Source of the DNA: Pseudomonadota bacterium
Lineage (GTDB): Bacteria > Bdellovibrionota > FAC87 > UBA2466
NCBI GenBank assembly: GCA_043767805.1
Contig: JAYUGC010000012.1
Span: forward strand, 1-18,218
Length of the DNA stretch: 18,218 nt
Direction: 5' to 3'
A program made the translations under genes and the position numbers. Every line of letters begins with the position of its first letter. Positions within the stretch are counted from its first letter, which is position 1. Below are positions 1 to 12,514 of the stretch, in pieces. The notes beneath the pieces are model-generated. The model searched no databases and was not told where the DNA came from. It worked only from the letters and a program-made list of their open reading frames with translations.

Positions 1-8
1 ACTCCCCT

Positions 9-358
9 GGCTGAACCCAGGCGCGAAACGAACAGTTCAGCCGCAAAGAATAAAGGTAAGTGGCGCGGACAAACAGGCTGAACCGGTGAGGCAATCCGCT
101 TAAGGGCGCGCAACGTGCCCGAAAGCAGCCGTCTTAAAAGGTACGGCGTACCTTTTAAGATAGGGGTCGGGAACACTCGGGCACGTGGGTTGCCTCTGAG
201 CTATTTGCCTCTCCGGTTCAGCCGGTGAATCCGAGATCTAACGTTCGTTGTGAGGGGCTGAACTGCGCTTCGGGCAAGTCTTGCGACCTAGCGAGGTTTG
301 CCTCGCCGGTTCAGCCTATTCATTCAAGCTACTTACTTTGCCTGTAGCGGCTGAACTT
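9..358. repeat. Array of alternating inverted octamers (GGCTGAAC / GTTCAGCC) forming nested hairpins; REP/REPIN/MITE-like or structured ncRNA array, probably truncated by window start
   Basis: GGCTGAAC at 9-16, 76-83, 256-263, 349-356; GTTCAGCC at 35-42, 216-223, 309-316. GTTCAGCC-to-GGCTGAAC gaps are 33, 32 and 32 nt. TTTGCCTC(T/G)CCGGTTCAGCC occurs at 204-223 and 297-316 (19/20 identical), with an inverted copy at 76-94. Confidence 0.85.
132..160. repeat. Perfect 13-bp inverted repeat TCTTAAAAGGTAC-ggc-GTACCTTTTAAGA at the apex of the long hairpin
   Basis: 132-144 is the reverse complement of 148-160; the same arms recur at 12343-12412. Confidence 0.9.
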
Positions 359-1050
359 CACTGCTGCTGCACGGCCTTCTCTTTACGCCGCATCAGCTCT
401 TCCGGATCCTTCGTCGCGCCGACGCGCATCTTCCAGATCTTATAGCCGTTAGGCCCTTCGATCCATTCACCTTTGGCTTTGGTATCGTTGGGATTCAACC
501 CGTGCTGCACAAGCGCCGTCTGGTAGCGGCTCTCGCAGTTGTCGAGCCGGTCCTTGAAGTTTTCGTACTGCTGCTCGAGCACGCGCTTTTGTTTCTGATA
601 GCGCGTGAGCCGCTGATCGAGCTCCTCTTCGGAGTAGCCGATCATATTGTTCTGATTGTCCGCCTTGTACTGGAAGTCCTCGTCGGTTTGCGTGATCCGT
701 TCCCACTTCTCCATGGGCTCGGGCTTACCCGTGCCGCCCACTCGCGGATCGGAGACCCGAGTGCGGCAATCGCGCACGGCTTCGTAAATGCCGCCCGGAT
801 CGCGTTTGGTCTTGCCGTAAATCGCAAGCTCCAGATCCTCGATCTCGCTCTGCATTTTATAGAGCTGCTCCTCGAGGTAAATTTTCTTTTTGACCATGAC
901 CTTGTCGCCTTTGAGACCGACCGACTCCGTTTTGTCGCTGGTCGAGACTTTCAATTCCTTGTCGAATTTTTCCGTGGGGTCGTTTTTCGACGCGCAACCC
1001 GTGAAGAGAAGGGCGCAAAAGAGAGCTAGGCTAAGGTGTAGGTGTTTCAT
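358..1050 (-). CDS. Hypothetical lipoprotein with coiled-coil segments (230 aa)
   Basis: The ATG at 1050 gives MKHLHLSLALFCALLFTG|C, a type II signal peptide with lipobox. Heptad-like stretches include LEEQLYKMQSEIEDLE and LEQQYENFKDRLDNCE. The track's start at 1113 overlaps plsC and is unlikely. Confidence 0.8.
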   Translation of the reverse strand: MKHLHLSLALFCALLFTGCASKNDPTEKFDKELKVSTSDKTESVGLKGDKVMVKKKIYLEEQLYKMQSEIEDLELAIYGKTKRDPGGIYEAVRDCRTRVSDPRVGGTGKPEPMEKWERITQTDEDFQYKADNQNNMIGYSEEELDQRLTRYQKQKRVLEQQYENFKDRLDNCESRYQTALVQHGLNPNDTKAKGEWIEGPNGYKIWKMRVGATKDPEELMRRKEKAVQQQ

Positions 1051-1070
1051 AGGTCTCCCGAAAATATCGC

Positions 1071-1751
1071 CTAGTGTACCACCTGGCAGGCCCAGCGCCA
1101 CAACTCTGCGCATTCGGCCGCCGGCTCTTTGACCAGGCGGGGCTCGAGGAACTCGATCTTCGCTTCGACGGGGTGCTTCAATAGATGCCAGAGATGGGGG
1201 ATGAAGGCATCGTCGCCGATGAAGGCGGCCGGGCGAAGCGGACTAAAGCTCAGGCGAAAGGGCTGTATCGGAAGGCCGTGTTTTTTCGCCGTAACGAAGA
1301 TGCCGTAACGCCAAGGGACCGACTCTTCGAGGGAAGTGGTCCCGGCGGGAAAGACGCCGATAGGCCGGCCCGTCTTCTTCAAGGCTTCCGCCATCAGATC
1401 GCCGACCTTGGCCCGCGACGTCTTGGAAGATCGATCCACGAACAAGATGCCGACCGATTTCATGGCGCGCCCGAAGAGCGGCCATGAGGCGAGCTCCTTC
1501 TTCGCTAGAAAAATGACGGGTGTTAGCGACATCAGGAGCGGAATATCGAGGTAGCTGATGTGATTTCCCACGTAAATCACCGCCCCCGACACCGGTTTTC
1601 CGACGACGGTAACCTTGGCGTTGAGGTCTCTGAGCGCAAGCGTTGCCCAGCGCCGGGTCACGCTTTCCACTCGATCGGGATAGCGGAGCGCAAAATTGGT
1701 GTAGCGCCAGCAGAGGGCAAGGACTTTGAAAAGCCGGAAAAGACGGCTCAT
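1071..1751 (-). CDS. plsC: 1-acyl-sn-glycerol-3-phosphate / lysophospholipid acyltransferase (PlsC/OlsA family)
   Basis: HxxxxD motif NHISYLD, FLAKKEL, LFVDR, FPAGT (FPEGT-like). Start taken at ATG 1751; the alternative at 1760 overlaps the upstream stop. Confidence 0.88.
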   Translation of the reverse strand: MSRLFRLFKVLALCWRYTNFALRYPDRVESVTRRWATLALRDLNAKVTVVGKPVSGAVIYVGNHISYLDIPLLMSLTPVIFLAKKELASWPLFGRAMKSVGILFVDRSSKTSRAKVGDLMAEALKKTGRPIGVFPAGTTSLEESVPWRYGIFVTAKKHGLPIQPFRLSFSPLRPAAFIGDDAFIPHLWHLLKHPVEAKIEFLEPRLVKEPAAECAELWRWACQVVH

Positions 1752-12337: not shown

Positions 12338-12342
12338 ACCAT

Positions 12343-12412
12343 GTCTTAAAAGGTCCTCCAATCAGCCTTCAAACGAAGCTTGAACGCTGACCGGGCCACT
12401 ACCTTTTAAGAT
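12343..12412. repeat. Hairpin bounded by TCTTAAAAGGT ... ACCTTTTAAGA, the same arms as 131-161
   Basis: GTCTTAAAAGGT at 12343-12354 equals 131-142; TACCTTTTAAGAT at 12400-12412 equals 149-161. Internal stem TCAGC-c-TTCAA / TTGAA-c-GCTGA at 12362-12390. Confidence 0.8.
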
Positions 12413-12514
12413 TTGCCCTGTTTTCTGCCGGTATACCGCCCCCGAAAGAGAGTGTTTGGAGACACTTTTTGTCTACGGTTACCCTGGTTTCTGCTGTTGT
12501 TGTGAGGTCGACGT

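Follow-up and report, generated by a model that had tools for sequence, protein, structure and literature searches.

A small, lineage-restricted family of hairpin-forming intergenic repeats in a member of the Bdellovibrionota

What is the ordered, non-coding array of short sequence blocks that opens a contig of an uncultured sediment bacterium of the Bdellovibrionota (assembly GCA_043767805.1, contig JAYUGC010000012.1)? The window considered here is the first 18,218 nt of that contig (G000:C12:1-18218), so that window and contig C12 start at the same base; G000 denotes the source genome, C-numbers denote its contigs, and G001 is a sister species. The array is marked by an octamer, GGCTGAAC, located on the plus strand at 9, 76, 256 and 349, and by its complement, GTTCAGCC, located at 35, 216 and 309. 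A preliminary description of the window reported seven alternating octamers, and their coordinates are confirmed: the seven sites strictly alternate, against 0.63 sites expected, and none of 200 shuffles reached seven. The segment lengths given there (34, 148 and 61 nt, and 33, 32 and 32 nt) follow from the octamer coordinates. The array does end next to a gene for a probable lipoprotein: its final octamer reaches 356, and from 358 follows the stop codon of that gene (TCA on the plus strand, TGA on the minus strand). Because the window starts at contig base 1 the array runs off the assembly, as was also reported. The octamer alone is not enriched across the genome (96 and 78 sites on the two strands, against about 86 per strand expected).

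Pairs of octamers, in contrast, are enriched. A scan of the whole genome for GTTCAGCC-N25-45-GGCTGAAC finds 13 places, all of them with spacings of 30-33 nt, and the reversed control pattern is found at none. The repeat unit so defined is about 88 nt long and consists of A-GTTCAGCC, a loop of 30-33 nt, GGCTGAAC, and a 40-nt tail that reads CGGnnAGGyAA ... TGCCCGR; its 5' flank usually carries a conserved GAGY-A. Positions 1-357 of the window are probably a cluster of this lineage-specific, non-coding, hairpin-forming repeat, similar to the bacterial interspersed mosaic elements (BIMEs) built from repetitive extragenic palindromic (REP) sequences and to the inverted REP doublets known as REPINs. 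The features of the cluster and of the gene that flanks it are listed below. Scores are from an nhmmer profile and from a covariance model of the unit (R1).

1-33, plus strand: 3' end of a short-variant unit (U'), with GGCTGAAC at 9-16 and a 17-nt tail; the remainder is cut by the contig end.
34-122, plus strand: full unit 1, with stem 35-42/76-83, a 33-nt loop and tail end TGCCCGA; nhmmer E 1.2e-18, R1 92.8 bits.
123-131, no strand: linker between unit 1 and the palindrome, delimited from the sequence; comparable linkers are present in the C53 and C182 composites.
132-160, no strand: palindrome of a second family, TCTTAAAAGGTACG-g-CGTACCTTTTAAGA, with 14-nt arms that are 100% complementary.
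161-176, no strand: linker between the palindrome and unit 2, resembling the linkers CTCCCCTTCCGAG.. of the C53 and C182 composites.
177-264, minus strand: full unit 2, tail-to-tail with unit 1; nhmmer E 1e-17, R1 87.5 bits.
270-357, minus strand: full unit 3, in tandem with unit 2, its head abutting the stop codon at 358-360; nhmmer E 3e-18, R1 88.7 bits.
358-1113, minus strand: flanking gene for a probable lipoprotein, an open reading frame (ORF) that from the ATG at 1050 reads MKHLHLSLALFCALLFTGC...

The units thus follow one another in the orientations plus, minus, minus, and units 1 and 2 form an inverted doublet that encloses the palindrome. With the units delimited in this way, the variable-length hairpins of the preliminary description dissolve as entities. 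They are junctions that run from the closing octamer of one unit to the opening octamer of the next, and in the 148-nt hairpin the tails of units 1 and 2 enclose a copy of a palindromic family that is unrelated to the unit. The 32-33-nt linkers between these segments are indeed of near-constant length, and the loop measures 30-33 nt in the other copies too. They are not unique spacers. The sequences between octamers at dispersed places in the genome resemble the window linkers, which shows that the supposed spacers are the interiors of units; the three window linkers align with one another and with the interiors of 14 other full copies, with a mean pairwise identity of about 50%, and conserve C11, C31, C33 and G34.

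These observations bear directly on the idea that the locus is a CRISPR-like or other guide-RNA array, in which spacers of constant length separate structured repeats. The likeness lies in conserved 8-mers that alternate regularly with variable stretches of about 32 nt, as in CRISPR arrays including those with the long and short repeats of type VI-B. The stretches are, however, homologous among themselves and with those of 14 full copies dispersed elsewhere, both orientations of the unit are present within the array, and the unit is also found singly behind unrelated genes. A search for Cas1 (PF01867), the one Cas protein that it covered, gave no match in the source genome, which is estimated to be 100% complete, and control genomes did match. 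By analogy with C53 and C182, moreover, only about 33 nt of the array would be missing. A guide array is accordingly so improbable that the locus can be described as neither guide-RNA nor CRISPR-like, and a false lead is removed.

Equally negligible is the probability that the locus is an integron-like cassette array in which the GGCTGAAC...GTTCAGCC segments are attC sites. The core sites of attC follow the consensus RYYYAAC and GTTRRRY, from which GCTGAAC and GTTCAGC each deviate at one position, and the segments are variable in length (34-148 nt) with complementary ends. The cassettes would nevertheless be only 32-33 nt long, devoid of ORFs and homologous to one another; most copies in the genome are a single GTTCAGCC-loop-GGCTGAAC with a tail and lack a second core site; and the 148-nt segment is accounted for by two unit tails and an unrelated palindrome.

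The left end of the array can be compared only with other loci. The U' fragment at 1-33 has the same layout as the short units found ahead of full units on C53 and C182, is similar to them in sequence, and has a 15-mer in common with C53:75810. By this resemblance, about 33 nt of the array would lie beyond the contig edge, probably followed by a stop codon. No contig of the assembly or of three public DNA runs spans the window edge. Exact k-mer overlaps between the array edge and other contig ends were absent at k >= 21, and none of the contig ends with octamer-like words that were inspected continues the array. The contigs from the three public DNA runs all end at window position 1, 24 or 172-174. 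Repeat families of this kind break assemblies, and they can mislead gene callers at gene ends.

How widely is the unit distributed in the genome? The nhmmer profile detects 16 full copies at E <= 1.6e-9 and one partial copy in the whole genome. R1 gives 17 matches, 16 of them at 66.6-92.8 bits and the last, a divergent copy on C153, at 34.9 bits. In all there are 17 full copies at 11 loci on 10 contigs, and the 16 high-scoring copies all lie outside the long ORFs listed for their loci. The array is thus not a locus-specific system, one of the possibilities raised in the preliminary description, because 14 further full copies are scattered over 10 other loci. For the same reason its alternative, a new REP or miniature inverted-repeat transposable element (MITE) family, is upheld in the broad sense; assignment to the REP class in the strict sense is not. 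The outcome is a small, old family of structured repeats from an uncultured sediment bacterium, documented with coordinates and a covariance model.

The copies are arranged in recurrent ways. Six tail-to-tail inverted doublets hold 12 of the 18 units, if an internally deleted copy on C75 is counted. The short variant U' occurs in four places, has a stem of the type xTTCAGCC/GGCTGAAx, a 33-nt loop and a 17-nt tail, and precedes full units at both ends of the C53 locus and on C182. A composite in the order U', unit, linker, palindrome, linker, inverted unit is common to C12, C53 and C182. Because the C53 (minus) and C182 (plus) units are 85% identical and their U' tails and linkers are nearly alike, this composite has been copied as a block. 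An autonomous parent element, with a unit head at one end and a unit tail at the other, was also sought in the genome, and only chance octamer pairs inside genes came up. In one of the sediment DNA runs (X2), a 249-nt contig carries a unit-like copy that matches window 268-317 between flanks that are absent from the G000 assembly; further copies therefore exist, either in genome sequence that the assembly lacks or in a strain related to this one.

Does the unit fold, and is the fold maintained? In an alignment of the 17 units and three short variants, the 8-bp stem formed by GTTCAGCC and GGCTGAAC comprises 160 cells, of which 98.8% are paired. Double changes (seven cells) are seen at four of the eight stem pairs: G-C to A-U three times and to C-G once, U-A to C-G, C-G to G-C, and C-G to U-A. 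None of 500 column shuffles matches this covariation, and sliding the partner by 1-3 columns reduces pairing to 4-48%. Both octamers are perfect in 13 of the 17 copies. Pairing of the unit's own stem, within its own strand, is what is selected. Wobbles and mismatches occupy few cells, which divide 2 to 1 over the two strands and hence make no choice between RNA and single-stranded DNA. Mean pairwise identity is 0.91 and 0.94 for the two stem halves, 0.81 for CGGnnAGG and 0.83 for TGCCCGR, against 0.50 for the loop and 0.53 for the middle of the tail. That stems and tail motifs remain near-invariant while loops have drifted to 50% indicates constraint on each resident copy.

Other parts of the predicted structure are less informative. 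A helix may form in the tail (CGG..GGCA/UGCC..CCG; 3 plus 3 or 4 bp with a 4-nt bulge), but its positions are invariant and show no covariation, and no supported helix was found in the loop interior. The whole array folds into one long branched hairpin of -164.3 kcal/mol, compared with -120.7 +/- 6.2 kcal/mol for shuffled sequences (z = -7.0). Intrinsic terminators, sought as a GC-rich stem of at least 5 pairs followed by a T-run, number 0 in window 1-1300 against 1.7 expected in shuffles; among the five high-scoring single units, T-runs follow only the C37 and C55 copies. A coding role was considered and rejected, because read-through peptides past the stop codons vary in frame and sequence between copies.

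The same conservation might be expected of double-stranded or cruciform DNA sites for a nucleoid-associated, gyrase or integration host factor (IHF)-type protein that organises the chromosome at gene ends. Binding of proteins of these types has been proposed for some BIMEs. Invariant sequence blocks agree with such sites, and so does the clustering in alternating orientation, where three composites conserve both the linkers and the palindrome at the centre. Half-sites spaced 30-33 nt apart would, on the other hand, be rotated relative to each other on duplex DNA, the compensatory changes in the stem favour intrastrand pairing over sequence read-out, and there is no candidate protein to name. 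We regard DNA sites of this kind as improbable.

Where do the units lie relative to genes? Of the 16 heads that face outward, nine follow a same-strand stop codon at a distance of 0-5 nt: unit 3 of the window, the C37, C48, C124 and C75 copies, three heads on C182, and the left end of C53. The other outward heads (C55, C182_c, C189_a, C189_b, the right end of C53, C153 and the deleted C75 copy) face gene starts or have unclear surroundings. In 8 of the 15 outward heads, positions -5 to -2 relative to the stem read GAGY, a motif whose background frequency in the genome is 1.1% per position. Together with the bases that follow it, GAGY gives GAG-TAG or TGA-GC, and hence the head carries stop codons.

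Comparison with G001 shows what this does to the genes. On C48 the terminal GAG codon is native, for the G001 orthologue likewise ends in ...RSE*. The glyoxalase I (GloA-like) gene on C124 (G000:C124 1925-1950) has acquired a C-terminal extension of six residues, EGSSAE: the G001 orthologue ends in ...ELIER*, and the G000 protein ends in ...ELIEREGSSAE* by way of a duplicated unit head. The lipoprotein of the window, which is 80% identical to its G001 orthologue and has no NCBIfam match over the ORF at 358-1113 (minus strand), ends in ...KEKAVQQQ*, compared with ...KEKAVKNPDGDT (...AVKNPDGDT) in G001 (window 358-380 against G001 stretch L044 2240-2283). To judge from these aligned 3' ends, the insertion of the array apparently replaced the last codons of the lipoprotein gene. 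The three comparisons place insertion at or in the last codons, and unit heads have remodelled at least one protein C-terminus, that of GloA, and probably a second, that of the lipoprotein.

Such positions raise the question of whether the units are host RNA elements. They could be cis-acting elements of the 3' untranslated region (UTR) whose dispersal is a by-product of old duplication and not of ongoing mobility, an explanation that we consider possible but unlikely; equally tentative is its functional part, in which a two-helix fold located directly past the stop codon would stabilise the upstream mRNA, terminate it, or influence how translation ends. The docking of nine of 16 outward heads on same-sense stops is what such elements would show. 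So are the contrast between stems and tail motifs (81-94% identical) and loops (50%), which implies constraint on each copy, the copy-specific compensatory changes with two G-U pairs in the C153 copy, and the T-runs after two of the five high-scoring single units. REP-containing mRNAs are, according to PMC12320835, structured substrates of 3' exonucleases, namely targets of RNase R and PNPase. Several observations point the other way. Even the sister species yields no member of the family, which is unusual for a conserved regulatory RNA, and Rfam has no match for it. The consensus scan calls no terminator in window 1-1300, the tail helix lacks covariation, and C55, C182_c, C189_b and the right end of C53 face gene starts or are antisense to both neighbours.

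R1 found no match in 40 relatives (24 of the same family, G001 included, four of the same order and 12 of the same phylum), compared with 17 in G000 itself, and G001 searched alone with R1 at E <= 1 also gave no match. An exact-pattern scan of the species genomes of GTDB and of metagenome records of JGI yielded 5 and 5 loci, whose R1 scores of 13.9-26.1 bits are at chance level. For window 1-500, Rfam returned at E <= 10 only mir-191 (16.1 bits against a gathering score of 54) and sR14 (11.1 bits against 38), so that the Rfam search proposed in the preliminary description gives no match at the gathering score. The papers retrieved on Bdellovibrio and repetitive extragenic palindromic sequences are, judged by titles and abstract openings, not about such repeats.

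Where orthologous sites can be aligned in G001, they are empty. At the C12 locus the TGA of the lipoprotein orthologue directly abuts the stop codon of a convergent ORF. The C48 locus reads TGATTA. At the C53 locus G001 has TAA-ACGCTC and G000 has TGA-GC-[368-nt composite]-GCGCTC; the insertion lies 2 nt past the stop although 224 nt of spacer were available, which argues for a real preference for stop codons. On C182 the spacer between c and d is 31 nt in G001 and 212 nt in G000. The G001 flanks are 67-79% identical in DNA, and the insertion junctions are therefore approximate. Absence from relatives and empty orthologous sites in G001 together identify the units as lineage-specific insertions. 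The family is new, small, old and restricted to its lineage, and it is a structured intergenic repeat.

Two of these loci show additional differences. The convergent ORF that follows the lipoprotein orthologue in G001 is at least 463 aa long, and tblastn of this gene against G000 gave no match at E <= 1e-5. On C48 (G000:C48 16381-16791), an ORF of 136 aa with a hydrophobic, signal-like start lies between the unit and the next gene; its match in G001 is on another contig (C13), which makes it a second rearrangement at the C48 locus beside the unit.

To which known systems can the family be compared? In REPs, such as those of the Enterobacteria, the hairpin foot is preceded on its 5' side by a conserved GTAG, which TnpA-REP requires for cleavage, and the genes for REP-associated tyrosine transposases (RAYTs) are flanked by BIMEs (PMC3479197). 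Like REPs and BIMEs, the 88-nt units are extragenic, hairpin-forming and dispersed, form alternating clusters with conserved linkers, have conserved bases 5' of the foot, lie at gene 3' ends, and occur in a genome that encodes RAYT-like Y1 HUH proteins (PMC3479197). Unlike a REP, which is an imperfect palindrome of about 30 nt, the unit has 88 nt, a loop of 30-33 nt and a conserved 40-nt tail, and its 5' motif is GAGY-A, not GTAG (PMC3479197). GTAG is seen only if the first base of the stem is counted, and that base covaries as stem. The copies also differ in being few (17-18) and only 50-85% identical, and in that they do not flank either RAYT-like gene as assembled.

In Pseudomonas fluorescens SBW25, inverted REP doublets (REPINs) are the replicative unit, fold in single-stranded DNA or mRNA, and show compensatory changes (PMC3116915). 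The present family shares with them the predominance of inverted doublets (12 of 18 units), the compensatory changes, singles alongside doublets, and a predicted hairpin that is possible in single-stranded DNA or mRNA. It departs from them in that the arms of its doublets are only 56-71% alike, its covariation lies inside the stem of each unit and not between arms, and its population is small and old, not large and near-identical (PMC3116915). The family works like an element of the REP/BIME/REPIN type; it is not filed as a REP in the strict sense.

A third comparison is with MITE-type elements, such as the Correia elements of Neisseria and the GTAG-tipped palindromic repeats of Stenotrophomonas. 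The 88-nt family is like these in being non-coding and about 100 nt in size, in lying at gene ends, and in a predicted capacity to fold in transcripts and alter the ends of neighbouring ORFs. It differs from the Correia or MITE type because the single unit has neither terminal inverted repeats nor a consistent target-site duplication. A MITE with terminal inverted repeats was accordingly rejected as a classification: the head, A-GTTCAGCC, and the tail end, TGCCCGR, are unrelated, and no flank duplication recurs.

If the units are mobile, which protein might move them? The Y1 HUH transposase family PF01797 has matches at three places in the genome, two above the cut-off and one just below it at 22.5 bits. 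Those on C66 and C84 encode RAYT-like paralogues that share 43% identity and in which the HUH and Tyr motifs are visible; the C86 place is a weak IS200-type match only. The C66 gene encodes a RAYT-like Y1 transposase of 230 aa in an element whose GC content is 47%, compared with 58% for the genome. The repeat that accompanies it, at G000:C66 16715-16743 and 17427-17455, is 29 nt long. About 50 places in the genome match it over nearly its full length; many of these matches are 96-100% identical, and several are at contig ends. Inverted doublets of this 29-mer, with copies 7-55 nt apart, are present at about 20 loci. Examples are as follows.

C182, 35749-35827: copies of the 29-mer.
C169, 18037-18115: copies of the 29-mer.
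C46, 4124-4187: copies of the 29-mer.

The C66 gene and its 29-mer are a classical, young REPIN-RAYT system, and the sequence of the 29-mer is unrelated to the 88-nt unit. The second gene, on C84 (G000:C84 3-560), lacks roughly the last 45 of its expected codons, because the contig starts there. Its protein scores 70.4 bits against the NCBIfam model REP_Tyr_transpos (REP-associated tyrosine transposase), below the 80-bit cut-off. A perfect 18-nt palindrome, CCATTTGGTACCAAATGG, lies in the spacer upstream of this gene.

The overall reading that we favour, with moderate confidence, is a REP/BIME/REPIN-like structured repeat family that was spread by hairpin-directed, single-strand transposition. 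Units would have inserted into the intergenic DNA of the lineage, with a preference for stop codons or the few bases next to them and with the head towards the gene. They would often have done so as tail-to-tail inverted doublets, and sometimes around a palindrome of the second family. The spread itself may have been driven in trans by an activity of the IS200/IS605-RAYT type that recognises hairpins in single-stranded DNA. Once inserted, units would be transcribed within the 3' end of the upstream gene, and their stem-loops might be kept by selection, for example as barriers to 3' exonucleases.

A number of observations weigh against this reading. No 88-nt unit adjoins any PF01797 match, and the family has no cognate transposase linked to it. 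On C66, the complete RAYT-like gene is flanked by a different, perfect 29-nt inverted repeat, and the 68-nt upstream flank of the C84 gene contains no unit, its 3' side being lost at the contig end; the link that defines a REP-RAYT pair is therefore not present for the 88-nt family. Since the REPIN-RAYT system that coexists in the genome uses another repeat, the spread or retention of the 88-nt family needs another explanation. The copies number only 17-18 and are old and divergent (50-85% identical over their full length), unlike active REPIN populations. Doublet arms, at 56-71%, are no more alike than random pairs of units, so that selection for one long hairpin between arms is not evident. 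Single units lack terminal inverted repeats, their head and tail end (TGCCCGR) being unrelated sequences, and no clear or recurrent target duplication is found in the flanks, where the one candidate is GC/GC at the C53 site. In compact convergent spacers, lack of room in part forces nearness to stop codons. Finally, invariant stems in diverged copies suggest a function in place and not mere selfish spread.

These last features, namely invariant stems and tail motifs beside loops that have drifted to 50%, keep a host function alive as an alternative of rather low probability. The units might then be, instead of decaying selfish DNA, a module retained by the host that docks on stop codons and acts on the upstream message through a two-helix fold and a loop of free sequence and constant length; we give this version rather little probability. 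Its more specific form, also unlikely in our estimate, would have the module protect 3' ends or couple to translation termination, after a hairpin-directed spread that did not use the REPIN-RAYT pair of this genome. The REP/BIME/REPIN-like family moved by single-strand transposition remains the reading that we prefer.

The palindrome enclosed by units 1 and 2 belongs to a family of its own. The pattern TTAAAAGGTA-N0-9-TACCTTTTAA has 17 exact matches in the genome, three in the sister species and none in 39 other relatives, and more diverged copies are also present in the genome. Many copies of the family (TCTTAAAAGGTA-N0-9-TACCTTTTAAGA) are located just 3' of stop codons. The family might serve as a site for a protein, as a weak terminator that works in both directions, or as a REP. 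In one copy, at about 12340-12415 of the window, the arms are split by an insert of about 45 nt.

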